Virus record (IMG/VR): IMGVR_UViG_3300045988_091674
Direction: 5' to 3' (one strand)
DNA: 64,000 nt
Source: a virus
Positions 35,433 through 52,724 of this stretch are shown one piece after another. The translations under genes were made by a program, and so were the position numbers. The stretch's first letter is position 1, and every line of letters begins with the position of its first letter. The notes beneath the pieces were generated by a model. The model ran no database searches and had not been told where the DNA came from. It saw only the letters and a list, made by a program, of their open reading frames with translations.

Positions 35433-35509
35433 TGGTACTCGAGGTGAGACTCGAACTCACAAACATCAAGGTTTGAGCTTGACGGCTATACCAATTAGCC
35501 CACTCGAGC
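35433..35509 (-). tRNA. tRNA with anticodon CAA (Leu) but type-I body with short variable loop
   Basis: Acceptor gctcgag/ctcgagt, anticodon stem tcaag/cttga, loop CUCAAAC, 5-nt variable loop, discriminator A. Atypical for Leu. Confidence 0.5.
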
Positions 35510-36132
35510 ATTTAAATCTTTGAGCATCATTTCAATTCTGTCCAATTTACTGTTCATAGCATCTAACAGAATTTTGGTTTGTTCATCAAAGCGTTTAGAA
35601 ACTTCATTTCTTAATCTTTCCACTTCGTGACTTTCAGCATTTTGCAACTAAAGCACAAAAGAAATAATCGAAATAATATCTAAAAATTCAATATTATTTT
35701 GCCACATAAATTGCCAACTCCTCAATAAAAGAAATGCGAGAGAGCTATTAGTATTTATTTAAGATAACTCTCTCGCGGTTAAAAGAAAGGAAGGATTTAT
35801 TTTCTCAAGTACCATCTCTGGTATGTCTGCCAAAGCTCTTTTCTGGTGGGAGGAGTTTCAGGATTTCTCCTTCCTAGCCTAGCTCTATTTCTCTTCCATC
35901 TTTCCAACCATCTCTCTGAAAAAACTTCAAAGGAAGGAGCTACTTCTCGATAATCTCGAATATCCCAAGAGCAATAAGCCTTTTTAAAAGACCCTTTATC
36001 AAAGTTTACTTCCGGGTCTTTAAGGAGCCTTCTAACTTTTTTATTGGCTCTTCTCTTTCCTCCATTATAAGAGATAGAAGATACAGCCGGGGTTTTCTTA
36101 CGAGACTTTCCCATGTTAGACCTCCTTATTAT

Positions 36133-36207
36133 TGGCAGCGGAGGTGGGATTCGAACCCACTCCCGAGGTTTTAGAGACCCCTGCGCTAACCATTACGCTA
36201 CTCCGCA
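36133..36207 (-). tRNA. amber suppressor tRNA (anticodon CUA), tRNA-Trp-like scaffold
   Basis: Anticodon stem ggggt/acctc, loop CUCUAAA giving anticodon CUA, T-arm gtgggttcgaatcccac, CCA encoded. Loop and T-arm are nearly identical to the window's tRNA-Trp (47063..47138). Confidence 0.75.
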
Positions 36208-36865
36208 ACATACATATCAAGACACTATATTAAAAACCTACAAGTATTTGAAAAAAAATAAAATTTACTTTATGTAAAGATAGCTGTTAGTGTCTTATGT
36301 TACTGTCGTTCTTGCATAATAGCAACTGATGTTCTATCAGTCGCATCTCTGTATGTTCCTGATGTAAGCCCGTTTAATGGACACCAATCAGGAATTTCGC
36401 ATTTTTCTCTTAGCTCAGACCAATGACTTGCTACTGTAATCCATGGGTTTACCGGAAGAGGACTTTCTGCAAACGCGGAATTATAACCTAAAGGCATTAG
36501 ATACGAAATTTCGTTGCATTTCATTCCTCTTGCTTTAGACTCTGAGCAGAAAACAGCTAAACAAGTATCATCCTCTGGGTCAGGGTCTTTTACGACCCAA
36601 CATTTATCACAGTCTAAACAGTTGCTCATACCTTTCAACTTTCTATAAGTATTATATCAAAAAAATTTTTTATTGTCAAAATTTCCACCAGGATTTGTGA
36701 TAGCCGCATTTTTTACAATAACATGAAACTTTCATTCCTCGATGAAATGAACCGCTGCTATTGGAAGTTTCAGCCCATCCTTCACTAAAAACAAATTCGT
36801 GTTTACAAAAAACTTGTCGGATATAGTTGACTAACCAGCGCATTACTCTATCCCCTTGTATAAAA

Positions 36866-36955
36866 TGGCGACGGAGGTGGGATTCGAACCCACGGACGCC
36901 TTTCAGCGTCTCTAGTTTTCAAGACTAGTGCCTTCAACCACTCGGCCACTCCGCC
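36866..36955 (-). tRNA. tRNA-Ser (TGA), type II
   Basis: Loop CUUGAAA and a long variable arm. 90 nt. Confidence 0.7.
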
Positions 36956-37396
36956 ATAAAAGGGCCGAAGCCCTTATATTAAAGGTCGTTCAAGATTTCT
37001 GCGAGGTAATCCTCAGCCTCTGTAACTCTTGCCTCAGAATCAATAAGGTAATCATACATCTTCTCATGATGAGCCTCTGCGGCGCGACAGGCTTCGTAAG
37101 CTTCTTTTGTCTTACGAGTAGCTCGATCATAACGCTTATAGGCAATCTTCAAAGCGCATCGAGCGGCCGCAAGCTCCTTTCCCTTCTCCATAGAGAACTC
37201 GTCACTGGGGTCACAGGTTGCTACACCACGAACAGTCTTTCCAGCATAAGTAGAAACGGCGATAACTCGCCGGCCATTGGTGTAATAACGATACTTCTCA
37301 GTGGGATACATCATAATTCTTCTCCTTTATAATTTTAATTTTTCTTTTCTTTAACTTTCTGTATATATTATATTATAATTTTTAATTTTTTGCAAA

Positions 37397-37597
37397 TTAG
37401 AAAGTACCCCAGGAAACACCGGTTTCAACAAATGGCAACTCTAAATAATGACTTGTACCATTTCCGACCTTAAAACGGATTTCGCCAGAATCTTCAATCA
37501 CAATAATCAATTCTCCATTTAATAGAATAGGATTATTGGCTTCCCAATTCTCGCTTGTATCTTTCTTATTCGAAATTCTACTATTAAAAGTTACCAT
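37397..37597 (-). CDS. small protein with tail-fiber N-terminal-type domain
   Basis: 66 aa. ENWEANNPILLNGEL...KVGNG matches the N-termini of the two larger paralogs upstream. Confidence 0.45.
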   Translation of the reverse strand: MVTFNSRISNKKDTSENWEANNPILLNGELIIVIEDSGEIRFKVGNGTSHYLELPFVETGVSWGTF

Positions 37598-37650
37598 TTT
37601 AAGCCTCCTTAAATAAAAATAAAGCCCATTTAAAAATGGGCTTTATTAAA

Positions 37651-38988
37651 TTACATCACTGTATTAGAACTTCCACAATTAAAAATAATTGTAGCAGTTT
37701 GAGTTAAATCATCAATTTTCCCACTTTTGGCTACAGTAGATAGATCGGAATTATTGGCTTTCTAAGCAAGAGCTGCGGATAATCCGTTAACATTCTCAAT
37801 AGTAGGCTGCGCACGAGTTACATTGATAACACCATCAACCTCGGAAACCGCAGTTACAAATTGATTTGCTACCGCAGAATCCTCTTTGTCTAAGGCATTA
37901 ATTTTAGAATCTGCATATTGTTGTGCCTCTTGTTTTGCTGTATTAATCTTTTCTTGTGTTACTGTTGCAGTATCATATGCAGAAAGATCTACCATTCCAG
38001 CAAGAACGTCCCACTTAAACTCATCCTCGCCGGTATCAATACATACTACATTAGTACCAGCAGGATAGTCTTTACCAGCTCCTTCCACGAAGTCAGCAGT
38101 TGTGGTAAATTCATCAATGATATTATATACTTTGCCTTCCTCTACTGCACTTAATTCTGGAAGGGAATCAAAAGCAACAGATCCTCCAGCTTTGTAAGTA
38201 GAAGCAAGTTTCGCAGCAATCTAATTATCAGTATAGGTCTTAGCTTCATCATATGCGCCTTTAATAGTTGTAGAAGAGCCACTACCAGTACCGATTAATT
38301 CTGTTTTTGCTTGAGTAATTTTCTACTCTACCTCTGTAGTTTTTGCATATTGGGAGATATTTAGAGCAGTAATTTTTTCATCGGCCGCGGTTCCAGCCTC
38401 TTCAATAGCTTCTTCTTTTGCTGTTTCTGCGCTACCGGCAGGATCATAGGCAGAACTCTCAGTATAAGCAGCAGAGCCAAGCCCGTGAACTTTTACTTCT
38501 ACTTCAGAGCCAGTTACTCCAAATTTAACAGTACCATTGGTTGCTCCTTCAAGCAAACTATAGGTTGGAGCAACAAGAGCGATTGTGCTTACATCGGTCC
38601 AAGAACTATCATTTTTTGGCTTAGATTGAAGTTTGAATCCCATATTACCATTTTTGACAATCTGATACTGTGTATCGGTATCTTCAACTTTCTCTCCAAT
38701 GAAGTCCTCAAGTCCTTGAATTTCACTTGCTTGATATGTAGGTTTAGTAGCTGCTTTTGCCCAAGCGTAAACATCAGCAGCAGTTCCACTCACCCACTTT
38801 AAAGTTTTAAAATCTGATTCTCCATCACCTATTTTTAATAAATAGGTAGGCTCGTTTTGAGCTACACCTGTTTCAACTGGAACTTCAACAACAGCCATTT
38901 CCCCTTTTAGAAGAGTTGGATTGTTGGTGTTCCAATTTTCATAGGTGTCATATTTTAATTGGATTCTAGTTTTTAATTCATTGGCCAT
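37651..38988 (-). CDS. tail fiber protein, three in-frame TAGs
   Basis: ORFs 38323..38988 and 37762..38088 are in one frame. TAGs at 38323-25, 38218-20 and 37759-61. Ends in TAA at 37651-53. N-terminal ENWNTNNPTLLKGE...KIGDG motif. RBS AAGGAGG. Confidence 0.7.
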
Positions 38989-39007
38989 CTTTAAAATGCC
39001 TCCTTAT

Positions 39008-39569
39008 TTTAGTCTACTGCTGTCCCACAGTTTAATATTAAAGTAAAACCTTCAACATCCACTATTTTATCAAGTCCTACAGAATTAATTTCTCCGGTTC
39101 CATCTGAAAGTATTTTTATCTAGTTATTCTAACTACTCCCCTTAATTAAACCAAGATTTTCTTCTGTTCCCGCCGGAATAGTAACTTTATTATCTTCAAC
39201 CGGCAAATCTTTATTTCCGATAGAGATAGTTTCTATTACTTTATCCTAAGATATTGGAGTATACCACTCTAATGTGCCATCTTCTCTTTTTCTAATAGAT
39301 TGCCCTGTTGATGCTTCTGCAAATCCTTTTAATGAAATCTGTCCAATTCCATCAATAACAATAGATTGATTGTCTACATCAACATTTACCAAACTACTAT
39401 TTATATATTTTAACTATTTCCACTCGGTGGCTCCATCTCCAATTTTTAACTTTCCAGTATCTATTTCAAATCCCGGCTCACCTTGACGAAGAATTGGATT
39501 TAATTCGGTCCACTTCTCTGATGTTCCTCGCTTGAACTAAAATATTGTTTTATAAACAACTTCAGCCAA
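39008..39569 (-). pseudogene. tail fiber paralog with a +1 frame break near codon 30 (TTG start)
   Basis: TTG at 39569 with RBS AAAGGAGGG. After ...ILRQ the reading needs a 1-nt skip at the plus-strand caccc tract (39479-82) to continue as GEPGFEIDTGKLKIGDG... to TAA at 39008-10. Carries TAG codons as well. Confidence 0.4.
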
Positions 39570-39583
39570 AGTCACTCCCTCCT

Positions 39584-39841
39584 TTAGCCAATTAGTCCGC
39601 CATCATAAATAATAGTTGTATCTTCTGGAGGAAGAGGCTAATCTCCGCCTCCACCAGAGGGCTACAACACCCATTCATGATCAGAATTGAGAATATATTT
39701 ATTTCCATTTTCAATTACATATGCCGAACTGCCTGGCTTTCGGTTTGTAGGGAGATTAGCAACATCACTTTGGTAATCACATAAAAAATGAATCGCGCCA
39801 TATATAATTTTATTGGCTGTATTTTTACCAACAGTAATCAT
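39584..39841 (-). CDS. Gly-rich small protein, two in-frame TAGs
   Basis: ATG at 39841. ...VLQPSGGGGDQPLPPEDTTIIYDGGLIG then TAA. Confidence 0.4.
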
Positions 39842-40115
39842 ACTTATTCTCCTTTCTTTAAAGAGTAGAGAAAATTATCTCTCTTTATACTATATAACAA
39901 TAATGACAAAAGGTTTTACATAAATTGTCCAAAGCCTATTTTTGAAAGAAAAATTTGGTGGGCCTGTGCGAACGAAAACTCGGAGCAGGACGGGTAAACA
40001 GAAAGAGGGGCTACCTATTTGGTAGCCCCTCTAGGGGATTGGAATTTTGCAGAACTCCAATCATACATATTACATTTATAAATGAAATATATATAAACAC
40101 CGCTGCAACGATGGA

Positions 40116-40191
40116 TGGTTGCGGGTATGAGAATCGAACTCATTCCTCAAGCCTTATGAGGGCTGCGACTTAACCACTTGTCCTACCCGCA
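40116..40191 (-). tRNA. tRNA-Met (CAT)
   Basis: Loop CUCAUAA, T-loop TTCGATT, U1-A72, CCA encoded. Confidence 0.65.
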
Positions 40192-40230
40192 ATATATAAA
40201 GCAGTTTTAAGACTTGCTTAGGTCTTTATA

Positions 40231-41352
40231 TTAAAGGTCAATATACTTATTGACATTATAAAATGTAACTTTAGTAAAGGTTACTCCTTCAACTCTCACG
40301 TTCTCGTTAAATTCTTTTCTCGCTCTTTCTCTCTCTTCCTCAGAGGGATAATTCAAATCGAAAGTATCGAAGTCGCAACAAATCTCAGCGTCCATTCCCA
40401 TAAGAGTTAGGGTGCCATTCACTGATTTGATATTGCTTGGAGAAAAAACAAGAATAAAATCATTCTTATCTTTTCTAAATCTAATTCGCTGCTCTTCTTT
40501 GTCATAGAGGTTAAGAGAATAGCCATACACTGTCATAGCCCAACCATTGGTTAGTCGAACACTAATATCAAAGACAGAATTTCTTTCATAGTTAATGTTC
40601 AAATCCATCAGGGTTTCCTCAAGAGGGTAGCCCTGCTTCAAATCAAAAGCAATGGCTCTCAGACTGTCATAGGTAATATCCGCGATCTGCGATAGCTTAA
40701 TTACCTTTTCAATCTCCTCTTGAAATCCTGTTCCCACCGCATCAATCATATAGTCTCTTACTTCATCCGCGGTTGGGCATCCAATTTCAAAATGATAATG
40801 GAAACGACCGGGTCTGTTAATGAGGAACTCGTTCAATCTCTTAGTATCGTTGCACGTGATAACGAAAAGTTTCTTTCCATCATCAACGCCGTCAAACAAA
40901 CTTAAAAGCTCTACCTGCGGATCCCCGTCATCATTTCTTGCGAAAGTCTTTTCAAACTCGTCGAAGATGATAACTACTTCCTGCTCAATAGAACTTAGAA
41001 AGTTGCTAATTCCGGGGATTGGACAATCGACTATAATCACCGGCATATCTCGCTTAATCGCGGCTTCCGCAATCATACGAGCAAAAAGAGATTTGCCAAT
41101 ACCTTTCTTACCAGAAAGAATTATGCCAAAGTTTCTTTCAGCTTTCTCAAAAGAGTTAAAAACCTTTTCTACTTTTCTTTCGTGCGAACCATAAACCTTT
41201 TCTTCTTTTACTTGAAGGTTATTATGCAACTGAAGCCAAATTCCCATTTGAGGATGGAAGCCGATCGAATATGTACCCGCAGGCAACTCCTTATAAGTTT
41301 TTACATCATCCCCATATACTTGGAAACGGTTTCCTGTATGAACAATATTCAT
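40231..41352 (-). CDS. AAA+ ATPase
   Basis: 373 aa. Walker A GKKGIGKS, Walker B IIVDCP. Confidence 0.6.
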   Translation of the reverse strand: MNIVHTGNRFQVYGDDVKTYKELPAGTYSIGFHPQMGIWLQLHNNLQVKEEKVYGSHERKVEKVFNSFEKAERNFGIILSGKKGIGKSLFARMIAEAAIKRDMPVIIVDCPIPGISNFLSSIEQEVVIIFDEFEKTFARNDDGDPQVELLSLFDGVDDGKKLFVITCNDTKRLNEFLINRPGRFHYHFEIGCPTADEVRDYMIDAVGTGFQEEIEKVIKLSQIADITYDSLRAIAFDLKQGYPLEETLMDLNINYERNSVFDISVRLTNGWAMTVYGYSLNLYDKEEQRIRFRKDKNDFILVFSPSNIKSVNGTLTLMGMDAEICCDFDTFDLNYPSEEERERARKEFNENVRVEGVTFTKVTFYNVNKYIDL

Positions 41353-41443
41353 TACATACTTCCTTTCCTATTGTTTGGTTTGGTGGGCCAGGAGGGAATC
41401 GCACCCACTCGAGCTCGAAAGCACCGGTTTTTGGAGTTAAATC

Positions 41444-41848
41444 TTAGATTCGAACTAAGTATTTACTGGTATCCAATTTACAATTTGGGGCACTGGTTGT
41501 TCTCAAAGTTATTGATTTTACATTTCCAGCTTGAATCAAATCGTTCATTGGAATTACAAACATATTCATATCTTGATTAGCGCAAAACAACAAGTCTAAA
41601 GGATGGTTAAGTATCGAATCATAAACATTTCCTTTAGTTCCACCTGCGGATTTTAGATTAATTTCTCCAGTTTTCGATGATGTAAATTTGCACTAAACTG
41701 TTTGGAAAACTCCATCTTTTTCAATAACTAAATCATACCATTGAGTATCATTCAGTGGGACTGATACAGTGTATCCATTAGAACCAAAGTATCCTATTGC
41801 TAAAGATAGACCAGCATTTCCTTTCTACTGATTGTTTGTAATGACCAT
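41444..41848 (-). CDS. hypothetical protein with in-frame TAG
   Basis: RBS AGGAGG then ATG at 41848. Read with TAG as sense, ends in TAA at 41444-46. Not in the ORF track. Confidence 0.4.
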
Positions 41849-42015
41849 TAATATCCTCCTAAGTAGGAATTTAACACAGACCGGGGTGTCTACTTTATCA
41901 CTTTACTGACCCATATATAAAAGCGCCGAACATCCTATTAGAACGCCTTCCCCATGCGGGACTTCTATTGTTTATTTGCTGGCAGAATTTGAACCATTAA
42001 CCATGGCGCTATTAG

Positions 42016-42101
42016 TGGTGCGGGAGAAGGGATTCGAACCCTCACGAGCCAAGCTCAACGGATTTTAAGTCCGTGGCGTCTACCGGTTCCGCCACTCCCG
42101 C
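42016..42101 (-). tRNA. tRNA-Leu (TAA), type II
   Basis: Loop CUUAAAA and a long variable arm. Confidence 0.7.
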
Positions 42102-42187
42102 ATAATGCACATTTTTATGCTGAGTTGCGCTTCTCACCTTTCTCTTCTTCTTCCCCGACGGATGAAAGTATCTTCGGCATATTCGGT

Positions 42188-42307
42188 GGGGAGTGCAGGA
42201 CTCGAACCTGCGACATCGTGCACCATAAGCAAGTAGTAAAGATTGCTGTTACGGTCTTTGACAAGACCAAACTATTAACGCGCTCTACCTACTGAGCTAA
42301 CTCCCCA
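42188..42307 (-). tRNA. 120-nt tRNA-like gene with about 45 extra nt between the D-arm and T-arm
   Basis: Perfect acceptor ggggagt/actcccc, canonical D-arm tagctcagtaggtagagc, T-arm gcaggttcgagtcctgc. No canonical anticodon arm in the intervening 70 nt. Confidence 0.4.
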
Positions 42308-43188
42308 TATTAAAAACGATTTTGGTTAAGGTTAATCGTGAACCTTGTCAGTGTGCTACTACGCCAAAGGCGAGTCCTGCAGGTCTACTCGCCACTCTTT
42401 GAATGGTGGACGCTTTCAATCCTACATCCTGACAATAGAAGTCTTATTTACGATTTCTATACGTATTGCTTCTATTACTGGCACCGCTTCTTCGTGTTGA
42501 ACGAAGACCTCTTGGTTCAGAGCCAAGCGTGCAGACCGCTACACTAAAGCGGTATAAAGAAAATAGAATAACTTAAATATAACTATAATGCGGGCCTTCG
42601 CCCTACCAACTGTTTAATCTTCATCTATATTCAACCATTGAGGAGACAAGTCTGAGCTTCGAGGAGCGACCTCTAACTTCTTGCCCCAGAACTTTTGTTC
42701 CATTTCTCAAAAGGGATTGATTACCCTTACCTTTCACCCGTCATTCAGAAATTTGATTTTAGAACAAGCAATATCTTATTATCTAATCATCAAAGTCTTT
42801 GCACATTTGGGCTACTCAGATCATGACCTTATCTTATACCCAGATTTCTCTGGTTCAAGTGCAAACTCTCTTGTTGGCATTTCCAAGGATTGCCAAAGTT
42901 GCCACACTTTAACCTAACTTGGATTATTCCCCACAGGGGCGTCTATTGCGAGAGCGATAAGACAGTGTTTTTAGATGCGATTATGTCAGCACAACCCTCC
43001 TAGGAGCCGGTCATTCGACCACGAGAACTCTAATGTCACCATTAAAGCCCATTACGGATGGTTGGGGTATCCTCCATTATCCGATTCTCCCAGCCTAAGC
43101 TCGGATTGGGTTTCTCAGCCACATGACGTTGTGTCTTCACTGAGTTGCATTATAGCCATATCTAAGTTATTCTATTTTCAAGGTACAG

Positions 43189-43262: not shown

Positions 43263-43335
43263 ATAAATACAAGACGCATTAAAGAAAAGACTGTTTATCA
43301 GACAGTTGCGTGAACCATTCCGCCAAAAAGCCAAT

Positions 43336-44499: not shown

Positions 44500-44587
44500 T
44501 GGCGCAGAGGGTAGGATTTGAACCCACGGGCCTTTCGACCGCCTGCTTTCTAGGCAGGTGCCATAAACCAGACTCGGCCACCTCTGC
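44500..44587 (-). tRNA. type II tRNA with anticodon AGA (Ser-like)
   Basis: Perfect anticodon stem cctgc/gcagg with loop CUAGAAA, long variable arm. A34 is unusual for a bacterial-type Ser tRNA. Confidence 0.5.
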
Positions 44588-44590
44588 ATA

Positions 44591-44667
44591 TGGTACGCCA
44601 GAGAAGATTCGAACTCCCACTAGCCAAGGTCCGTAGCCTTGTGCACTTTCCATTATGCTACTGGCGC
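44591..44667 (-). tRNA. tRNA-Arg (ACG)
   Basis: Loop CUACGGA. Confidence 0.7.
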
Positions 44668-45337: not shown

Positions 45338-45631
45338 CTAAGCTCTAGCTTTTTTCTTTGGTTCATTAAGATAACTGACAATCTCTTCTAATAAAGAAAT
45401 AGCCTTTCTCCGCTCTATCTTCCAAATATAAGCCTGTTTCCATTTTGGATTACGCTCATTTTTCTTGGAAATAACTCCTCCAAAATGCTCTTTAAGATAT
45501 TCTACAATTTGATATGTTGTACTAGACACTTCTAATACTGGATACCTAAACTATTTATCCTTGGTGAGAGTAATACTTCCTTCACCATCAATAATGCCAG
45601 CCAAATATCCTCTTTCTAATTCTGTCATATT
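45338..45631 (-). CDS. LAGLIDADG homing endonuclease (single-motif type), one in-frame TAG
   Basis: RBS GGAGG then ATG at 45631. LAGIIDGEGS motif. TAG at 45551-53 joins the sequence to ORF 45338..45529. Confidence 0.55.
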
Positions 45632-46147
45632 AATTCCTCCACATATGTTATATATGGAGCCGAATTGGGTTTCGATTATCCACCACTTTCTTTTTAAGAG
45701 AAGAAAGAAACTCTTGGTGGAGATGACGGAGAGTCGCACTCCGTGTCCGAAATAACTACATAACTAGAATATTATTACACGATAGTTTCACTTTAAACTT
45801 TTATAAATGGAGTTTTAGCTGAAACTACTAATAACCATAGAGCAGTACCAGTTGTACTCTGCCTCCACCACTCTATTTAATTAAAGGCAAATAGAGAAAT
45901 CCAAGGGATTAAAACAGCGAGCTATGCTCAAGCTGCGATATTACTAGAAAAATAATCGTTGTCGTTTAATTTTGTTGCCCCTTAAGGCGGTATGCCTACC
46001 CGTGTATTCTAGTTTCTCATTACCCCGTCGAACCTACGCATCCCCATATAGTGACCCTCTATCTATTGCAGAAAGAATCGAACTCTAGACTCTATAGCCA
46101 TAGAGGGTCTTTTGTAATGAAATTAAAATGTCTGCCGATTTCTCGGC

Positions 46148-46222
46148 TGGTGGGTTATCGAGGACTCGAACCTCGTCCCGTAGGGCTTCAACCTACTGCT
46201 CTGCCCGTTAAGCTAACAACCC
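46148..46222 (-). tRNA. tRNA-Phe (GAA)
   Basis: Loop UUGAAGC. Confidence 0.65.
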
Positions 46223-46225
46223 GTA

Positions 46226-46302
46226 TGGTACCCCGTATTGGACTCGAACCAATGACCTACCGCTTAGAAGGCGGTTGCTCTTTCCAGCTGAGCTAACGGG
46301 GC
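46226..46302 (-). tRNA. tRNA-Arg (TCT)
   Basis: Loop CUUCUAA. Confidence 0.7.
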
Positions 46303-47062
46303 TTACTAAAATCCCTTAAACTGCTTACCTTTATATGGTAACTCTTCACAAAGAATACCATGACTCATCATCCATTCCTGTAATACTTTTCTTTCAGAAC
46401 AGGGATTATTGATTGCTTCATGGACGATAAGAACAATAATAGGTTCTCCCTCGAAATTATTAGCGGATTGGATAATTCTTGTTATTCTATCGCATCTTTC
46501 AAGAAAGTCTATAAAATCAACTTTAGATAGTTGAGTTCTATATCTTTGTAAAAATAAACAATTATCTGGAGTTTCTGGACAAGCCATACCTTCGCATAAT
46601 CCAGAACAAGAATTATCTGGATGAAGCATTTCAGCTCTTAGCCCATTGATAACTCCATTTTTATCAAAGAAAGTATAACCGTTATCCATGCCCTTATGAA
46701 ACCATAAGGGGTCTCCGCAAGCAGTAGAAAGAGGTATCATATTAGGAGTAAAATTGCGGATTTGATAGAAATAAGAAGTATAAAACTTCATTCAAATCCT
46801 CCACGCTCTTGTTTCACGGAGCTGCTCTTCAATATCTTCTTGATAGTTATATACTTCCATCACTCTTTGCATACTTGAACTATTGATTTCTCCAATTTTA
46901 ACAATGGCATCCTCATAGCTAACTGCATATGTTGGATAATCCTCAAAAGAAAATCCATCGCAAGCAATAATACAATATTTATTGATACCATTGTCTCCGC
47001 GAGTTACCATATCTCTGACTTCGATATAATTAGCAGCCATGAGTAGCCTCCTCTCATAATAT

Positions 47063-47138
47063 TGGCAAGATGGGTGGGACTCGAACCCACAGTCATGGTT
47101 TTGGAGACCATTGGTTTAGCCAATTAACCGACCACCTT
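47063..47138 (-). tRNA. tRNA-Trp (CCA)
   Basis: Loop CUCCAAA. Confidence 0.7.
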
Positions 47139-47142
47139 ATAT

Positions 47143-47218
47143 TGGTGCAACCAGCAGGGATTGAACCTGCGACCCCAGCGTTATCAGCACTGTGCTCTAC
47201 CAACTGAGCTATGGTTGC
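47143..47218 (-). tRNA. tRNA-Ile (GAT)
   Basis: Loop CUGAUAA. Confidence 0.7.
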
Positions 47219-47448
47219 ATATAATATCCATGAGCACCACTCTTCGACAAGGATTGTGCCGCCACTCCATGTTCGTTTCAGGAAAGGCCTAACGAGCATA
47301 TTTCGTCTGCCAGTCGCCGAGCTTTTCTGGTTAAGAGGTACTCGAAACCATACCTTAGTCTATTCACGGTAACTAACCGGAGCTGTTACTCTCACCCAGT
47401 CCGTCTTTAATTGTCAGGTGCCGGGCGCGGACTTTCCCTAACCTTACT

Positions 47449-47525
47449 TGGACCGGCTGACGGGACTTGAACCCGCAGTCCCCTGCTTGGAAGGCAGGTG
47501 CGTTAGCCAATTACGCTACAACCGG
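47449..47525 (-). tRNA. tRNA-Gly (TCC)
   Basis: Loop CUUCCAA, U73. Confidence 0.65.
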
Positions 47526-47528
47526 ATA

Positions 47529-47604
47529 TGGTGCGTCCGGGGAGACTCGAACTCCCGATCCCCTCATTAAAAGTGAGGTGCCTTACCAACTTGGCCACGG
47601 ACGC
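47529..47604 (-). tRNA. tRNA-Lys (TTT)
   Basis: Loop CUUUUAA. Confidence 0.7.
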
Positions 47605-47879
47605 GAATTTAGCCTTTATTCAGGCCAAATATCTTCACTAAAAAGCTCTCTATATTTATCATCATCTTCGATTAATTGACGACATTTGCGAGCCTCAATC
47701 TTTGCATCATATCTATCAAGAAATCTTCCATCATCTGTGAAAAAACCCTGAACCAACTCTTCTTTGCCCCACTCATAACCCATCTGGTAAGCCTCTTCTA
47801 AGCAATCTGCATGGCGCTTCCCGCAAATCACGACAGGATATTTACCAAAGTGAGGAGTAAACTTGATTGCAGAAGCAAT

Positions 47880-47950
47880 AATCATAACTCAAAACTTCCT
47901 TTCCTTAACTTTCTATATATATTATATAATAAAAATTAAGAATTTTCAAG
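47880..47950 (-). promoter_or_regulatory. sigma70-type promoter cassette copy
   Basis: TTGAAA, 17 nt spacer, TATAAT, then TATATAGAAAGTTAAGGAAAGGAAG, upstream of the ATG at 47885. Confidence 0.5.
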
Positions 47951-48164
47951 AAGATTTTTATGCTTAGACTTTCTACTAAAAGAGCCTTTTCCTTTCTTTG
48001 CTCTTGTTATAGAGCCTCTTCGTTTGAAATATAAATACTCCTGTAATTCAGCAGGAGATTTCTTTTGTGCTTGTTTAATTATTTTTAAATTCATTATACT
48101 AGACCCCTTTTCATCTTCTTATGTACCCAAAAACATATGATTGAAAATTTGCTGAATAGGTCTA

Positions 48165-48241
48165 TGGGTTGTAAGACGAGATTCGAACTCGCACTAACCT
48201 CGGCCACAACGAGGGACTCTACCAGTTAAGCTACTCACAAC
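48165..48241 (-). tRNA. tRNA-His (GTG) with genomically encoded G-1
   Basis: Loop UUGUGGC, discriminator C73, extra G at 48241 opposite C73. Confidence 0.65.
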
Positions 48242-48433
48242 ATATTGGCAATAGATTTTAATATCAGGTATCGGCGTCCTGCCTTTGCACTCGGAATTAG
48301 CGGTACAATTCTCTGCGCCCTATCCAACCCTATCCGACTCGGTTTACCATACGGACTGCTCGATAAAGTGGCCACAATATCTTACAGGTAGGAGGAATCA
48401 CTCCATTGCCGCGTTTAAACGCCTCTGCCGAGG

Positions 48434-48509
48434 CTGGAGCTGGATAAGAGACTCGAACTCTTAACCTATCGCTTACAAGGCGATTGCTCTGCCTATTGAG
48501 CTAATCCAG
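48434..48509 (-). tRNA. tRNA-Thr (TGT)
   Basis: Loop CUUGUAA. Confidence 0.7.
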
Positions 48510-48820
48510 CATATAATGGTCGATATAAATCTCGGCCTAGATTAAAGAAGATTGACAGTATGCTCGTTTCCACACTATACACCAACCGCCAGCCTAATCG
48601 CCGGCCGTATGGGAATCGAACCCATTCCTCTGTCTTGTGGTTTTGGCCCCCTGTCCCTCTCGGCGTCCGCAGCAGTACCACCAAACTTGTCGGACTTATT
48701 AAGTTGCTTGTATTATCGCCGCAAGCGAACGGAATAGCTTAGTCGGTTTTCGCTATTAACACAAATCGCCTCGTTTATATGCGGCCGGCATATACAACAG
48801 TGTCTGTCCCGATTGGCGAT

Positions 48821-48912
48821 TGGCGAAGGGGAGAGGATTCGAACCTCCGGGTCACATTTCTATGGCCGAGGGATTAGCAATCCCTTGCATTCAACCACTC
48901 TGCCACCCCTCC
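48821..48912 (-). tRNA. tRNA-Ser (GCT), type II
   Basis: Loop UUGCUAA and a long variable arm. Confidence 0.7.
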
Positions 48913-49128
48913 AAATATGTTTCCTCTGCGTTTCATGGGCTTGGAACCAACACCTCTCGGTGGCCGCATTGAACATATAAGTTATCTTACCTATTGCTGG
49001 GGATAACTTCTGTTTCTGCGAAAATGAAATCATCAATATCCATCATTTTATTACCTCCTTAATACTTTTTATCTTGAGAATTAGCATTACCCAAAGTGCG
49101 CCACGTGGAGGCTTCTCAAATGCACTTC

Positions 49129-49200
49129 TTGCGGGAGCGAGAATCGAACTCGCGTAATTAAGTTTATGAGACTCAACTGAGAACCAACACCCTTCCCGCG
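49129..49200 (-). tRNA. tRNA-Met (CAT) #2 with C1·A72 mismatch
   Basis: Loop CUCAUAA. 1:72 is C·A, which is initiator-like, but the anticodon stem lacks three G-C pairs. CCA is not encoded. Confidence 0.5.
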
Positions 49201-49504
49201 ATATACGGCCATTAGAATTAAATTATAATGAAACCAAAATATATTTCTACTACTTAACGCCTAGACGCTCTTGAGTTGGTCTGCGTTGCCACTCCTCGCT
49301 TTTTATTCTCGCCTCATATATTCTATATTTTGGAATAACTCTAATAGCCACGGTACTCTTGCGCCCCTCCGCTGGATGTATCAGCCGGAACCGTTTCCCT
49401 TTATAAAGCAAGGGCGTGCCAATTAATAATTACATTCTTGCCGTACCATACTCTACGCACAAGAAAGACCCGTTTTCTCTGTTGAGCCGTGGAGTCCATA
49501 CGTC

Positions 49505-49581
49505 TGGTGACGCCTATGAGATTCGAACTCATATTGCCGGAGTGAGGTTCCGGCCTCCTATGCCATTTAGAGGAAGGCGCC
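49505..49581 (-). tRNA. tRNA-Glu-like (CTC), non-canonical C33
   Basis: D-arm and anticodon-arm layout resemble tRNA-Glu. Loop ACCUCAC. Confidence 0.4.
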
Positions 49582-49895
49582 ATATAACAAGCAGTTTATC
49601 GACTTGCTTAGGTCTCCACTTATTTAAGTATTGTCAATCTCAATAGTGCCACACTTTGTGAGCACCTGCACGGGAGTTCCCTTCAAATCTGCATCCTCAA
49701 GAGTTCCGTAATCACAAACATAGACATTTGTGTTACCAACCTTGCGAAGCTCATTCCCGCAATTAGGGCACTTATGTACCTTCTCAGCTTCAACCGCACA
49801 CTTAATACCAAAGGCCTGACCGAGCGCGACAAAAGAATTGAACTTCCCGTGAACATTCTTCATAATAAGATTTATCTCCTTTTCCTATTGATTTA

Positions 49896-49970
49896 TGGTA
49901 CTCGGTACGGGAGTCGAACCCGTGCTTCTGGCGTGAAAGGCCAGCGTCTTTACCGCTTGACTAACCGAGC
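49896..49970 (-). tRNA. tRNA-Glu (TTC)
   Basis: Loop CUUUCAC. Confidence 0.7.
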
Positions 49971-50180
49971 ATATTACGCACTTTTAGTATCTTACTTCTA
50001 TCATCTACTTTATTAAGATACTAACTTTTCTTCCAGTTGGTGAACAGCGGCGTCACTGAAAACCACCTATTTCTATTGAGGGCGGAAATAGATAATGCCC
50101 TATTGTTTTATGGCAATGAAATCAATAAAAACCTGTAATCATTAGATGGTATCATATGTATAATTGTTAGTAGATACCTA

Positions 50181-50256
50181 TGGTGGAACATACGAGGGTC
50201 GAACTCGTGACCTCCTGCTTGCAAGGCAGGCGCTCTCCCAACTGAGCTAATGCCCC
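50181..50256 (-). tRNA. tRNA-Ala (TGC)
   Basis: Loop CUUGCAA, G3·U70 identity pair. Confidence 0.75.
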
Positions 50257-50423
50257 ATACTATGGTTAAGATGATTGGTCGTGTCAATCAAGGAGAACTA
50301 CGCTCTAATTTATCGGCTACTACAGTCCAATGTGCCAGGCATCAACCCAAAGGGGACACCGCATTGCTGATTCACTTGCGCGCTATCGCTGCCTATATAC
50401 GACTTGCGATACTTTGTTCTTTC

Positions 50424-50460
50424 TCAACCTTGTATAAACATTATACAATATTTTTTATTG
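50424..50460 (-). promoter_or_regulatory. sigma70-type promoter (TTGAAA, 17 nt spacer, TGTATAAT) upstream of the tRNA-Ala segment
   Basis: Reverse complement ATTTGAAAAACAATAAAAAATATTGTATAATG. Confidence 0.5.
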
Positions 50461-50501
50461 TTTTTCAAATTGGCGATGACGACGGGGTTTGAACCCGTGA
50501 C

Positions 50502-50979
50502 CTTCGGCGTGCCTTAGTGATTATAGTGTGGATAGAATATCTTCAGCTTTAAAATCTTTAGCCTGCTTTTGAGTAGATAATCTTGTGGCAACAGTCCAAA
50601 ACTTAGTCTCTACTGTTCCAAAAACAGGGAACATATAAAACCTTCCATTAAACTCTGTCATAAAATAGTCTACATCTTTAGCAGAATAAGTCATTTTTTT
50701 AACTTTTCCATTTTCTCGCACTTCATATTTAGTACGAACAAGAAATCCAGTTTCCTCTACCGGCATAGCGTGTTTTACTTGAATTTTATAGAATTTGCCG
50801 TTCTTCTCTATCACTAAATCATACTTTTGATGATTTCCAATCGGAATAAGAACATTCCAACCATTCTCAATTAAATACGCCTAACATTTAAGCTCTGTAA
50901 TATCTCCAATCTGGGATGGATTTAATTTCTCCAATGCTATCAATCCTCCCTCTAAAGATATTCTCTATTAATCTCCAAG
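50502..50979 (-). mobile_element. putative self-splicing (group I-like) intron in the tRNA-Asp anticodon loop, carrying a 97-aa ORF
   Basis: Bounded by the tRNA halves. The U|...G| boundary nucleotides fit group I rules. ORF 50521..50814 lies inside. Group I core P-elements were not verified. Confidence 0.45.
50521..50814 (-). CDS. intron-encoded ORF (97 aa, unknown function)
   Basis: ORF located inside the intervening sequence of the split tRNA-Asp. No recognisable homing-endonuclease motif. Confidence 0.35.
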   Translation of the reverse strand: MIEKNGKFYKIQVKHAMPVEETGFLVRTKYEVRENGKVKKMTYSAKDVDYFMTEFNGRFYMFPVFGTVETKFWTVATRLSTQKQAKDFKAEDILSTL

Positions 50980-51119
50980 ACAGGCCGACGTTCTAGCCTA
51001 CTGAACTACGCCACCGTATAAGGCGAGGAAGGGTCGTACGCACCCCGTGTGCTTTGCGCCTCGTCGTTCACATATATCACACTTCTGACTTATTGGGCAT
51101 GGGAAATCAGTAGAAACCA

Positions 51120-51206
51120 TGGTGCGCATGATGGGACTTGAACCCATACGCTCTTACGAACACGAGCACCTCAAGCTTGCCTGTCTGCCTATTCCAGCAC
51201 ACGCGC
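51120..51206 (-). tRNA. tRNA-Leu (GAG), type II
   Basis: Anticodon stem caagc/gctcg with one A·C mismatch, loop UUGAGGU, long variable arm tgttcgtaagagcgt. Confidence 0.5.
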
Positions 51207-51364
51207 ATATTTCTATGGTATTGATCGAGTTCCAAGGCTTCCTCTTTTAATACTGACTAGCCATCATAAATGCTTGGCCATTTACGACAAGAAATCCAGT
51301 CTTCAACTACGGGCCATAGCTCCGCCGGTTTATATGGGTTTAAGACAATGTCACCGGAACCATC

Positions 51365-51441
51365 TGGTGTTCCCGGCGGGAATCGAACCCGCAACATCAT
51401 GGTTCTAAACCACGCGTGTCTGCCTATTGCACCACGAGAAC
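51365..51441 (-). tRNA. tRNA with anticodon TAG (Leu CUA) on a type-I body
   Basis: Stem cgtgg/ccatg, loop UUUAGAA, 5-nt variable loop, A73. Confidence 0.5.
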
Positions 51442-51566
51442 ATAAAAGAGCAACTATTTGTTTCAGAACTACCCGTCGCTCTATGGGCCAGCCTATTATT
51501 TTAGTTCGCAGTGGACGAATTGAGAGTTTAGGGTTAAAGTCACGACGCTACTCACAAACTTGACTC

Positions 51567-51640
51567 TGGCGGATCGCCATGGAGTTGAACCATGCTATCA
51601 AGGTTAACAGCCTTGCGTTCTACCGATGAACTAGCGATCC
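51567..51640 (-). tRNA. tRNA-Asn (GTT)
   Basis: Loop CUGUUAA. Confidence 0.7.
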
Positions 51641-51650
51641 ATATTGAGGA

Positions 51651-52172
51651 TTATGAAATCAAATCCTCAAGAGTTTTGAAATACTTCTCTTCATCAAATA
51701 AGATTGGCGTAAAATCATCTAAAGAAATTAGACCATTTTCAATTCTTCTGTGACAATTAGCACATAGCATTATACACTTTTTTGCTTCATCTGCATAAGC
51801 CTATTTACTTCTTGTAGTAGAAGAATTTGCGATACCAAAACTTTTTGTAGATGGGTCAACGTGATGAAAGTCGTATAACTGAGGTGCATCCCGCAATCCG
51901 CAGTAAGAGCATTTATGAGAAAAACCTTCCACCAATGCTAGCTTAATTCGTTTTCTAAAATTAACTACATTTTTTCCACTATTTTTCTTTAAATGCTACT
52001 TACATCCGCAGCTCTAAATAGCTCCAGAAGTTAAATGACCTGTCTAAACTTCTTTCTCGTTCCCACATTCACATCTACATAGCCAATATGTTTTACCACT
52101 TCTACTTGGAGCTTTTGAAACTGCTGTTAATGCTCCAAATTTTTGTCCAGTTAAATCCAACGCTGTCGGCAT
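51651..52172 (-). CDS. HNH homing endonuclease with N-terminal zinc-ribbon module, in-frame TAGs
   Basis: RBS AAAGGAGAG then ATG at 52172. MPTALDLTGQKFGAL...YWLCRCECGNE...SCGCK...DFHHVDP...CANCHRRIE. Ends in TAA at 51651-53. Not in the ORF track. Confidence 0.6.
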
Positions 52173-52340
52173 AACAATTCACTCTCCTTTATATAATATA
52201 TAAGAATTAGTGAATTATCTTTAGCTCACTTTACCCAAAAATTTTTCTGAGCTACCGACCCAAGCTCAAGGCAGAATAAATAAACTTTCTTAAACCAAAA
52301 TAAGCGTTTTATTTGTAAATAATTTGCTGTATCTGCCTTA

Positions 52341-52379
52341 TATAAATATTATAACATATTTTTTATTGTTTTTCAAAAA
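52341..52379 (-). promoter_or_regulatory. sigma70-type promoter copy (TTGAAA, 17 nt spacer, TGTTATAAT)
   Basis: Reverse complement of ccttatataaatattataacatattttttattgtttttcaaaaag. A roughly 160-nt leader precedes the HNH gene. Confidence 0.5.
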
Positions 52380-52650
52380 GATTCAGTTGTTTAGCTTCAT
52401 CATAGGAAATACCAAAGGTATCCTTAAAAACCTTGAGAAAGTTTTCCCACTGTTCCTCTGGCCCACCAATGCCGCCATTCATAAGCCAAAGGCTATCACA
52501 AACTACATCTTCATCGCTGTAACAGGACATGGCCTTAGCGGCAAGTTGCGCGAGGTATAATTTCTTATCCATAAACAACTTCCTCTCTCACTTTCTATAA
52601 ATATTATATCATATTTATAAAAGTTTTTCAAATAATTTCAAGGCACTAGA

Positions 52651-52724
52651 TGGCTTCCAAAATGGGATTCGAACCCATAACTTTTTATTTCAATTAAAAT
52701 GTCCAACCATTAGACTATTCGGAA
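52651..52724 (-). tRNA. tRNA with anticodon TGA (Ser UCA) on a type-I body
   Basis: Perfect stem tttta/taaaa, loop AUUGAAA, 4-nt variable loop, G73. Confidence 0.45.

Follow-up and report, generated by a model that had tools for sequence, protein, structure and literature searches.

Leucine tRNAs without a long variable arm (type I) are already known from Streptomyces. The type-I tRNA-Leu(CAA) of S. coelicolor (Fan et al. 2019, PMC6614811) combines a Leu anticodon with a 5-nt variable loop, A73 and U8-A14, and shares one cytoplasm with type-II isoacceptors. It is charged with Leu by its own LeuRS, but not by the LeuRS of E. coli or S. purpurogeneiscleroticus (PMC6614811). In animal mitochondria, Leu and Ser anticodons are likewise found on bodies lacking the long arm; these are served by dedicated, co-evolved LeuRS and SerRS, and tRNA-Leu identity there rests on A73 and A14 (PMC9976931). 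The anticodon and the long arm are also dispensable in the tRNA-Leu identity set of E. coli (PMC9976931), and SerRS needs a long variable arm (PMC7609411). Body and anticodon are mismatched in remoulded tRNAs such as yeast mitochondrial tRNA-Thr(UAG), which is derived from tRNA-His and has an 8-nt anticodon loop (PMC7609411), and the nematode nev-tRNAs; their anticodons are fixed, and reassignment or mischarging has been demonstrated. Replacement of GNN by ANN anticodons in four-codon boxes accompanies a preference for the codons read (PMC13249217, PMC8007984) and needs ADAT or a TadA of expanded range to make inosine. Phage tRNA sets have been described as lacking ANN anticodons besides ACG (PMC8007984).

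We examined a stretch of 64,000 nucleotides from a virus (hereafter, the window). The original prediction had pointed to three type-I tRNAs with Leu or Ser anticodons and a type-II tRNA with anticodon AGA, and had proposed either altered charging or sense-codon ambiguity, or simply unusual isoacceptors. ARAGORN and Rfam agreed with it on the coordinates, anticodons, variable loops and discriminators of all four tRNAs (Table 1), with RF00005 matches at E <= 2e-8. ARAGORN likewise found the predicted type-II tRNAs of conventional form, namely Leu(UAA), Leu(GAG), Ser(UGA) and Ser(GCU). Variable regions were read from the ARAGORN cloverleaves and a positional parse of each tRNA. Two metagenome contigs, 90-99% identical to the region, contain all four tRNAs, which are therefore not assembly artefacts. 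With a probability of roughly 70%, the four represent three different cases, namely two tRNA-Leu, one tRNA-Ser(AGA) and one orphan UGA tRNA, in a phage whose sense code is standard.

Table 1 tRNA genes of the window discussed in the text
tRNA	Positions	Strand	Identified by	Variable region	Other features
tRNA(CAA), assigned to type-I tRNA-Leu	35433..35509	-	ARAGORN; Rfam RF00005, 59.8 bits	TGTTT, 5 nt	G1-U72, A73, CCA encoded
Amber suppressor tRNA(CUA)	36133..36207	-		4 nt	Gln-like end: U1.U72, G73
Type-II tRNA-Ser(UGA), conventional	36866..36955	-	ARAGORN, Rfam, isotype HMM		
Type-II tRNA-Leu(UAA), conventional	42016..42101	-	ARAGORN, Rfam, isotype HMM		Reference Leu body
tRNA(AGA), assigned to type-II tRNA-Ser	44500..44587	-	ARAGORN; Rfam RF00005, 52.7 bits	CGGTCGAAAGGCCC, 14-nt stem-loop	A34, loop CUAGAAA, G73, CCA encoded
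tRNA-Arg(ACG)	44591..44667	-			Canonical A34/TadA type, loop CUACGGA
Type-II tRNA-Leu(GAG), conventional	51120..51206	-			D loop same as in type-I Leu(UAG)
tRNA(UAG), assigned to type-I tRNA-Leu	51365..51441	-	ARAGORN; Rfam RF00005, 57.4 bits	ATGTT, 5 nt	A73, CCA encoded
tRNA(UGA), type-I orphan	52651..52724	-	ARAGORN; Rfam RF00005, 59.9 bits	AGTT, 4 nt	U1-A72, G73, CCA encoded

The bodies were compared using home-made isotype HMMs, which were trained on phage tRNAs labelled by anticodon, with the anticodon masked and the variable region stripped; the window and close relatives were excluded from training. The UAG tRNA scored best with the Leu model (39.8 bits; next 30.0), on a par with the 39.6 bits of the ordinary Leu(GAG). 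Leu was also the top model for the CAA tRNA (28.5 bits; next 22.9), although its margin of 5.6 bits is small, and several type-I Leu tRNAs from other phages score best as Lys, Arg or Pro. The AGA tRNA was assigned to Ser (49.9 bits; next 28.9). No model fitted the type-I UGA tRNA: its best score was 21.9 bits, whereas most ordinary tRNAs of the window reached 31-61, and Ser was not among its top scores. Thus, these home-made models agreed with the anticodon for CAA, UAG and AGA, which are the unusual isoacceptors that had been offered as an alternative, and the proposed mismatch of body and anticodon held for the type-I UGA tRNA alone. Overall, the original prediction was partly supported.

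The descent of the two Leu-anticodon tRNAs was visible in related loci. The CAA tRNA, which has a Leu-type D arm (3-bp stem with AAUUGGUAUA; A15/U48) and identical copies in L010-L014, lies upstream of a DUF2828 gene, in the syntenic slot where seven relatives (L015, L017, L068, L072, L073, L075 and L080) carry an 82-87-nt tRNA-Leu(CAA). When it is aligned with these longer relatives (alignment A2), a gap of 10 nt falls cleanly within the variable region, and the orthologues record in situ how the arm was lost, shortening from 87 to 77 nt. The D loop of the UAG tRNA, AAUAGGCAGA, is that of the adjacent type-II tRNA-Leu(GAG); this tRNA is identical to its counterparts in L090-L092 at 76 of 77 positions, and it has almost the same anticodon arm as an 84-nt Leu(UAG) in L015. 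Relatives also have type-I Leu tRNAs with UAA, CAG and AAG anticodons, and several tRNA arrays have exclusively type-I Leu isoacceptors.

Among 14 distinct type-I Leu tRNAs of the phage family, 99.6% of cells were paired, and double changes were observed at 19 of 20 pairs, a level reached by 0 of 500 shuffles. The bases G1, U8, A14, A15, G18, G19, A20a, A21, U33, A35, U48 and A73 were invariant and match the E. coli LeuRS identity set. Furthermore, when the body pattern was searched with any NAR anticodon allowed, 128 bacterial genes matched and 128/128 had Leu anticodons, with neither GAA nor AAA among them; a genome scan showed this body to be common in Actinomycetota, always with Leu anticodons. 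Judged from their sequences, the CAA and UAG tRNAs are genuine tRNA-Leu in which the long variable arm has been lost. The original prediction was too strong in taking a short variable loop as a mismatch for Leu: tRNA-Leu of type I form an established class in bacteria (PMC6614811), where LeuRS identity is independent of the long arm (PMC9976931).

Both tRNAs retain A73, U8-A14 and the A15-U48 Levitt pair, together with G18G19/A20a, the 11-nt D loop and the 3-bp D stem. Since all known elements read by bacterial LeuRS are kept, the host LeuRS most likely leucylates them, and UUG and CUA/CUG, for which they are the only phage tRNAs in the window, would be decoded as Leu. Compared with S. coelicolor, the genes here are encoded by a 37%-GC phage with TAG recoded, carry two anticodons (the relatives adding three more) and retain a traceable record of arm loss; the Streptomyces tRNA is rejected by E. 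coli-type LeuRS. Unlike the situation in animal mitochondria, no synthetase gene was seen in the window.

The AGA tRNA is, by its scores and long arm, a bona fide type-II tRNA-Ser, and SerRS would be expected to recognise it via that arm and G73. The predicted perfect anticodon stem around CUAGAAA was confirmed (CCTGC/GCAGG), and A34 in a Ser tRNA is indeed unusual for bacteria and phages (PMC8007984). A34 and the whole loop are invariant in four lineages (the window; L090-92; L008/L097; L072/79/80) whose acceptor, anticodon and variable stems have changed in a compensatory manner. Ser(AGA) occurs in nine of the loci sampled and Ser(GGA) in one. The phage uses TCT for 38% of Ser codons and TCC for 9%. 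These data are consistent with a wobble base switched from G to A, which would allow Watson-Crick reading of UCU, the dominant Ser codon of the phage. A34 is probably unmodified, because the loop does not fit the known TadA motifs.

The remaining tRNA(UGA) is the sole true mismatch of body and anticodon among the four. In the Rfam alignment, UGA occupies positions 34-36 of the 74-nt orphan, and the variable loop is 4 nt. Its anticodon stem consists entirely of A/U, and its D arm is GUCU-AAUGGUU-GGAC. Taken together, its features suggest that it is not a serine tRNA but a member of a phage family built on a tRNA-Glu-like scaffold, with a Glu/Gln-like body rather than the Ser-derived body of mitochondrial tRNA-Ser. 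Two metagenome contigs carry the UGA gene with A26G, and the D arm TAGTCAAANGGTTAAGACA is common to 35 viral contigs with the anticodons ACA, GCA, UAA, UCC, CCU, UUA, UUU and UUC. Its positional orthologue has an 8-nt loop, ACUCAAAG, and no CCA in L090-L092, the anticodon GCA in L008 and an 8-nt loop, CUUGAAAA, in L017. The window copy is fully canonical: its acceptor stem is perfectly paired, CCA is encoded and every base of the tertiary interactions is in place, which is more in keeping with a working tRNA than with decay. The orphan would thus be a structurally intact RNA of a family whose anticodon loop changes from phage to phage. It is probably poorly charged or uncharged, because it lacks the arm required by SerRS and carries an anticodon that matches none of the synthetases reading this element; it is also not needed for decoding, because the normal type-II tRNA-Ser(UGA) is present and covers UCA/UCG. 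The nearest parallel is the remoulded tRNAs, with which the orthologues in L090 and L017 share 8-nt loops.

Two further readings concern the roles of the last two tRNAs. Either the host TadA or a deaminase that the phage encodes elsewhere might convert A34 of Ser(AGA) to inosine, so that UCU, UCC and UCA would be decoded as by eukaryotic tRNA-Ser(IGA). A deaminase normally accompanies A34 tRNAs (PMC8007984), the TadA range of Lactobacillales has widened to tRNA-Leu(AAG) (PMC13249217, PMC11472039), the gene lies only 3 nt downstream of tRNA-Arg(ACG), and ARAGORN found no Ser(GGA) in the window to read UCC. However, the CUAGAAA loop differs at positions 35 and 36 from both TadA consensus loops, YUACGAA and YUAMGRA (PMC11472039), and a search of the window and about 100 related loci, which are parts of phage genomes, revealed no deaminase zinc motif. 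Moreover, A34 occurs among relatives in Ser-ACU, Cys-ACA and Tyr-AUA, whose boxes are split; there, inosine would cause stop or Arg codons to be misread. We consider inosine somewhat unlikely and prefer an unmodified A34. It is less probable that the orphan family represents functional specialised RNAs with anticodon loops under diversifying selection, such as decoys or baits for host anticodon nucleases, quadruplet or frameshift decoders with 8-nt loops, or substrates of phage enzymes. Several features speak for it: the D and T arms are almost invariant across the 35 viral contigs and compensatory changes maintain the anticodon and T stems while the loop triplet alone varies; three different loops are found on a single acceptor lineage (TCCAGAA/TTCCGGA, in which an A4.C69 mismatch is conserved); in the window as in L008 and L090, the gene stays beside an exonuclease gene; and the other window tRNAs with a same-isotype L092 counterpart all keep their anticodon. 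Nevertheless, CCA is absent and acceptor tops are mismatched in many members, which decay would also explain, and the window and L092 copies of the orphan are 78% identical, which is within the ordinary tRNA range of 69-100%.

As for charging, the failure of the E. coli and S. purpurogeneiscleroticus enzymes on the S. coelicolor tRNA implies that leucylation of the phage tRNAs depends on the LeuRS of the host, and could also mean that they are not LeuRS substrates and act outside translation as decoys, processing signals or regulators. This is very unlikely, given the strict conservation of Leu anticodons and LeuRS identity bases in the 14 phage sequences and 128 bacterial genes, the want of other phage tRNAs for UUG and CUA/CUG in the window, and the arrays that are all type I for Leu, which would be pointless if inert. 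We regard as highly improbable that the type-I tRNAs carry an amino acid other than that of their anticodon so that the meaning of UUG, CUA/CUG or UCA becomes ambiguous or changes during infection. In its favour, TAG is already recoded in this phage, the body of the UGA tRNA has a Gln/Glu-like end and a Glu-like D arm, and remoulded tRNAs can reassign sense codons, as in yeast mitochondria (PMC7609411). Against this, both Leu tRNAs are descendants of type-II tRNA-Leu in which the Leu identity set is complete. GluRS and GlnRS rely on anticodon bases, notably U35, and the UGA anticodon lacks it. Furthermore, unlike in remoulded tRNAs, the anticodon of the orphan varies among close phages, which is hard to square with a fixed reassignment.

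The behaviour of codons in orthologue alignments bears on the same question. TCA and TCT aligned with Ser (0.47 and 0.49), TTG and CTA with Leu (0.62 and 0.57) and ATA with Ile (0.49), values resembling those of synonymous codons; at conserved Ser/Leu positions, TCA, TTG and CTA were as frequent as their synonyms, with no excess of Gln or Glu. Hence, the suggested sense-codon ambiguity was not borne out and reassignment is unsupported, in a test that is blind to low-level or recently acquired ambiguity. The predicted recoding of a stop codon was corroborated: in-frame TAG links many minus-strand ORF pieces, it aligns with TAG (0.27) and Gln (0.23) in orthologues, and the amber suppressor tRNA(CUA), with its Gln-like end, accounts for TAG=Gln. 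The sense code of the phage is standard, and TAG is read as Gln.

Thirty tRNA genes, all on the minus strand, were found by ARAGORN at 35241-52881 of the window. Rfam confirmed the ARAGORN tRNAs and also detected a ROOL RNA, a tmRNA and a further tRNA-like gene. Four of the tRNAs are considered here: three with Leu or Ser anticodons (CAA, UAG and UGA) on bodies with a short variable loop (type I) and one with the anticodon AGA on a body with a long variable arm (type II). They scored 52.7-59.9 bits with Rfam, and the positions, anticodons, variable regions and discriminators of the original prediction were borne out by the ARAGORN cloverleaves and Rfam. The window is phage DNA of 37% G+C, the minus strand of which carries most genes, and the genes include gyrase, ligase, PhoH, NAPRTase and a major-vault-protein (MVP) homologue.

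Positions of the four tRNAs and of other elements in the window and in related phage loci (L-numbers)
Feature	Position	Strand	Remarks
tRNA CAA (type I)	35433-35509	minus	variable region TGTTT (5 nt); G1-U72, A73; CCA encoded
tRNA UAG (type I)	51365-51441	minus	variable region ATGTT (5 nt); A73; CCA encoded
tRNA UGA (type I)	52651-52724	minus	variable region AGTT (4 nt); U1-A72, G73; CCA encoded
tRNA AGA (type II)	44500-44587	minus	14-nt variable stem-loop; G73; loop CUAGAAA; CCA encoded
Canonical tRNA-Ser(UGA)	36866-36955		
MVP homologue	30773-33208	minus	
DUF2828/DUF7788 protein	33588-35111	minus	
120-nt tRNA-like gene	42187-42306	minus	Rfam 50.9 bits
ROOL RNA	42573-43168	minus	350 bits, full length; between tRNA-Gln(CUG) and tRNA-Gln(UUG)
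tmRNA	45715-46045	minus	Rfam 71.6 bits; inside the tRNA array
tRNA-Met(CAU)-like gene	49128-49201	minus	29.5 bits (Rfam threshold 29); no CCA
tRNA-Ile(UAU)	52787-52881	minus	variable-region insert of about 25 nt; A73
Inserted tRNA-Ile(UAU), relatives	L019, L084, L093, L173, L210, L258, L170		
Further A34 tRNAs, relatives	L082:6884, L088:5465, L070-L080, L050:6989, L024:5964, L089:1315, L094:9324, L082:7224		
Stem-loop-armed tRNAs, relatives	L010:9671, L015:9862 and 8237, L055:6279, L082:3334, L063:104, L086:4312		

IMG/VR holds over 200 relatives of the DUF2828-family gene that adjoins the array, and with further anchor genes about 100 loci of the same phage family were collected, on which ARAGORN identified 896 tRNAs. 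Close syntenic relatives (L010-L014 and L090-L092) showed 77-100% nucleotide identity over aligned blocks. Two metagenome contigs, L259 (OGGG01000034.1, 148 kb) and L260 (ERZ1673746 NODE-1291), were 90-99% identical to 38.9-54.5 kb of the window and are probably nearly complete genomes belonging to the same species of phage. Phass-1, of the "code 15 clade", was the only related phage in GenBank, and its host is probably a member of Clostridia. Megablast of the whole array returned only pieces of Phass-1 tRNAs, and BLAST of single tRNAs against GenBank phages gave only partial T-arm/acceptor matches to unrelated tRNAs, which were uninformative as to isotype.

Isotypes were assigned with home-made HMMs built from the tRNAs of the family. 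The anticodon was masked, the variable region was stripped, and neither the window nor its close relatives entered the training. This version replaced a first run in which variable regions were kept and window sequences were included in the training, and which discriminated poorly and was partly circular. The training phage tRNAs were themselves labelled by anticodon. The models assigned 24 of the 26 conventional tRNAs of the window to the isotype matching the anticodon, and most ordinary tRNAs of the window scored 31-61 bits. Leu was the best model for the UAG tRNA (39.8 bits, against 30.0 for the next model) and likewise for the CAA tRNA (28.5 bits against 22.9, a margin of only 5.6 bits), and Ser was the best for the AGA tRNA (49.9 bits; next, 28.9). 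For the type-I UGA tRNA, Thr scored best at 21.9 bits, Leu reached 12.3 bits, and Ser was outside the top four.

The CAA and UAG tRNAs both had a canonical 7-nt loop with U33 and a Leu anticodon as folded by ARAGORN; Rfam, which reports no anticodon, confirmed them as tRNAs. Their D arm, a 3-bp stem with an enlarged 11-nt loop, is the architecture of tRNA-Leu, and the UAG tRNA shares an identical D loop with the adjacent type-II tRNA-Leu(GAG). The lengths of tRNA-Leu formed a continuum of 74-92 nt across the phage family, within which type-I molecules of 77-78 nt with CAA, UAG, UAA, CAG and AAG anticodons were found in many divergent lineages including Phass-1. The CAA tRNA occupies a slot just upstream of the DUF2828 gene, where relatives carry tRNA-Leu(CAA) of 82, 83, 84, 86 and 87 nt. 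Aligned with its type-II orthologues, it showed a clean gap of 10 nt that did not extend beyond the variable region, and the UAG tRNA bore the same relation to the 84-nt tRNA-Leu(UAG) of the related locus L015. In 14 distinct type-I Leu sequences, 99.6% of the cells were paired and 19 of 20 pairs had changed on both sides, a level of covariation that was reached in none of 500 shuffles; slid controls were about 40% paired. Compared with these controls, the pairing and the two-sided changes indicate that the tRNAs are under selection for structure.

The positions invariant in type-I tRNA-Leu (G1, U8, A14, A15, G18, G19, A20a, A21, U33, A35, U48 and A73) correspond to the E. coli LeuRS identity set, in which neither the anticodon nor the long arm is needed (PMC9976931). 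The CAA and UAG tRNAs both possess the LeuRS identity elements A73, U8-A14, A15-U48 and G18G19 together with A20a, all of which were invariant in two alignments (A1 and A2). From the invariant positions, a 74-nt body pattern that allowed any N-A-R anticodon was constructed and run on bacterial genomes. At least 128 matches were obtained, and among the matches listed all 128 had Leu anticodons (UAA, 59; CAA, 38; UAG, 21; GAG, 5; CAG, 5); the anticodon GAA occurred in none of these bacterial matches. Most of the matches listed were genes on the chromosomes of Actinomycetota, in agreement with the type-I tRNALeu(CAA) characterised in S. coelicolor (PMC6614811), and the others lay on MAG contigs in dense tRNA arrays whose Leu isoacceptors were all type I. 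Since the Streptomyces type-I tRNA is not charged by E. coli LeuRS (PMC6614811), charging of the phage type-I tRNA-Leu would depend on the host. Capture of the three type-I tRNAs by AlaRS was also considered and rejected, as G3-U70 is present in none of them. Taken together, the best HMM, the identity set, the orthology and the pattern scan agree with the anticodons, so that the body/anticodon mismatch originally proposed for the CAA and UAG tRNAs disappears. Judged from their sequences, the two are phage-borne new members of the known type-I tRNA-Leu class, which is apparently widespread in Actinomycetota, phages and mobile tRNA arrays.

The altered charging or sense-codon ambiguity that such tRNAs had been thought to raise was examined by aligning the minus-strand ORFs of the window to all loci by tblastn, using hits of at most 85% identity, and tallying the orthologue residue for each codon of the window. 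TCA and TCT were aligned with Ser at 0.47 and 0.49, respectively (synonymous codons, 0.39-0.55), TTG and CTA with Leu at 0.62 and 0.57 (synonymous codons, 0.57-0.66), and ATA with Ile at 0.49 (synonymous codons, 0.51). TAG, the positive control, was aligned with TAG at 0.27 and with Gln at 0.23. Thus TCA, TTG and CTA behave like their synonymous codons and give no support to the proposed ambiguity; no sense-codon reassignment was visible in the orthologue codon table, low-level or very recent ambiguity being beyond this test. The reassignment of the stop codon held: TAG pairs with TAG or Gln in orthologues, ORF fragments are joined through in-frame TAG codons, and a Gln-like CUA suppressor tRNA is present in the window.

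The AGA tRNA proved to have a normal type-II Ser body, and the same tRNA-Ser(AGA) gene was found in the window, L090-92, L008/L097 and L072/79/80. Compensatory changes among its copies affected the acceptor pairs 2:71, 3:70, 5:68 and 7:66 as well as the anticodon stem and variable arm, and the loop, including A34, was invariant across the four lineages. Among the sampled loci, tRNA-Ser(AGA) occurred in nine and tRNA-Ser(GGA) in one. TCT is the commonest Ser codon (38%; TCC, 9%), and NNU codons exceed NNC codons throughout. ANN anticodons except ACG are reported to be missing from the tRNA sets of bacteria and phages, apart from rare Leu-AAG and Thr-AGU exceptions (PMC8007984); the conserved A34 tRNA-Ser in a bacterial virus is a new variant. 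Further A34 tRNAs were observed in relatives, namely Ser(ACU), Cys(ACA), Tyr(AUA), Thr(AGU), Ile(AAU) and Leu(AAG).

Where A34 is present, it is deaminated by TadA (PMC13249217, PMC11472039), and the A34 of tRNA-Ser(AGA) may likewise be converted to inosine. However, the known consensus of bacterial TadA loops is YUACGAA or YUAMGRA (PMC11472039), from both of which the loop of tRNA-Ser(AGA) departs at positions 35 and 36 (G35, A36). The deaminase zinc motif H/C-A/V-E...PCxxC was absent from six-frame translations of the window and about 100 loci, which cover part of each genome. Furthermore, several of the A34 tRNAs in relatives belong to two-codon boxes (Ser-ACU, Cys-ACA and Tyr-AUA), in which an inosine would lead to misreading of Arg or stop codons. 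On these grounds, we consider the chance slightly better than even that A34 of tRNA-Ser(AGA) is unmodified and reads UCU by Watson-Crick pairing.

The type-I UGA tRNA is the only real body/anticodon mismatch among the four. For this tRNA alone the original suspicion stood, because no isotype HMM fits it and the arm used by SerRS is absent. It is structurally flawless by ARAGORN and Rfam, and of the type-II Ser traits tested it has G73 alone. We know of no anticodon-reading synthetase that the anticodon UGA would suit. SerRS requires the long variable arm (PMC7609411, PMC9976931). For these two reasons we think that this tRNA would be poorly charged or uncharged, and that, with a canonical tRNA-Ser(UGA) already present in the array, it would be unneeded for decoding. 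That it is a mis-oriented opal suppressor was rejected, since in both ARAGORN and Rfam the transcribed strand carries the loop AUUGAAA, with U33 and the anticodon UGA.

In L090-L092, the positional orthologue between tRNA-Ile(UAU) and tRNA-Asn has retained the D and T arms, and its stems have changed in a compensatory manner; it has an 8-nt loop (ACUCAAAG), an A4.C69 mismatch and no CCA. The loop of the homologue in L017 is CUUGAAAA. The place held by the UGA tRNA in the window, second among the tRNAs that follow the exonuclease gene, is taken in L008 by a tRNA with the anticodon GCA. Every other tRNA of the window for which a same-isotype counterpart was found in L092 keeps its anticodon. We defined a scaffold family by the D arm TAGTC-A/T-AA-N-GGTT-(A)-R-GACA, a variable loop of 4 nt, an anticodon stem that is rich in A/U and begins with UU, and positional orthology, and the type-I UGA tRNA falls within it. 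An nhmmer profile tied the copies of the window, L090 and L017 to ACA, GCA, UCC and AUA forms. The shared D arm was found in 35 viral contigs by a stricter scan pattern, which the window copy, being two D-arm bases off, does not match. In some contigs the scaffold is a bona fide tRNA-Glu(UUC), and in others it carries ACA, GCA, UAA, UCC, CCU, UUA or UUU. The anticodon and T stems of the family in viral contigs are kept, the acceptor ends are often mismatched, and CCA is missing. We found no description of such a variable-anticodon family.

The UGA tRNA may be a drifting paralogue or may have a non-decoding role. The mismatched acceptor ends and missing CCA of many members of the family accord with the former and the retained stems with the latter. 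Faster evolution than its neighbours was rejected, as its 78% identity to the L092 orthologue lies within the 69-100% of ordinary tRNAs. A loop-anchored pattern for the UGA tRNA had no matches in IMG/VR, and in metagenome contigs it matched only two near-identical strains, too close to test selection on the anticodon. A combined proposal was also considered, which we regard as improbable. According to this, the orphan would represent an undescribed phage tRNA-like class on a tRNA-Glu-type scaffold, with a deliberately variable loop (ACA, GCA, UAA, UCC, CCU, UUA, UGA or 8-nt) acting outside ordinary decoding, for example as anticodon-nuclease bait or as a quadruplet/frameshift decoder. Within this phage family, unmodified A34 tRNAs (Ser-AGA, Ser-ACU, Cys-ACA, Tyr-AUA, Thr-AGU and Leu-AAG) would be strict readers of U-ending codons, breaking the ANN-exclusion rule for bacteria and phages. 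Separately, a conserved 74-nt tRNA with an 8-nt anticodon loop, to which ARAGORN assigns the four-base anticodon 'uaaa', was observed in L068, L070-L073, L078, L080 and L081, at about 3.5-4.4 kb in each of these loci except L078, where it lies at 902. Its acceptor stem is good, A/G73 and CCA are present, and it might be a quadruplet or frameshift-type tRNA.

Variable-arm length seems to be generally labile in the phage family: Leu and Cys tRNAs have lost the arm, and Ile-UAU, Cys, His, Thr, Lys and CUA suppressor tRNAs have acquired one. The tRNA-Ile(UAU) of the window is an otherwise type-I Ile body with an insert; its gene has a length of 76 nt in L090-92, the closest relatives, and of 89-94 nt elsewhere. 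Forms of 89-93 nt recur on unrelated MAG contigs that bear dense tRNA arrays. All Leu tRNAs seen in L173, L210 and L258 are type I. Stem-loop variable arms were also observed in relatives in an 87-nt tRNA-Cys (GCA, U73), in His, Thr and Lys tRNAs, and in CUA suppressors of 88-95 nt with Gln-like ends (U1 or A1, G73); the tRNA-Cys of the window (77 nt) is without a variable arm.

Several other elements lie in or beside the array. The MVP homologue adjoins the DUF2828/DUF7788 protein; it matched Pfam MVP_shoulder/Vault and rat MVP in PDB (E=3.6e-17, residues 464-766), and its gene aligned in both close relatives checked (L010 and L013). The DUF2828 gene flanks the tRNA array in the relatives examined, and its protein had no match in a PDB sequence search. 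A vault-like shell protein lies here beside a large tRNA/ncRNA cluster in a phage. In L010, the two Gln tRNAs are adjacent without ROOL, which indicates a recent gain or loss within the array. The tmRNA of L008 encodes the tag peptide DNSYFENHLAA. In the 120-nt tRNA-like gene the acceptor, D and T arms are perfect and an insertion of 58 nt replaces the distal anticodon arm; ARAGORN detected this gene in intron mode only. The weak tRNA-Met(CAU)-like gene fits no isotype HMM and has 88% identity in L092.

The four-tRNA finding is thus real and largely explained. A Leu or Ser anticodon on a short-armed body is taken by pipelines and readers as a sign of mischarging or code change, which is sought in stop-codon-recoded phages, and this case shows how harmless type-I tRNA-Leu can be separated from a true mismatch, here one orphan tRNA. 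Variable-arm length is evolutionarily labile in a large family of gut and rumen-type phages, and the published generalisation is contradicted by the conserved A34 tRNAs found in phages. Should these A34 tRNAs be unmodified, or the variable-anticodon family be non-decoding, this would bear on the translation strategy of the phages and possibly on conflict between phage and host over tRNAs.
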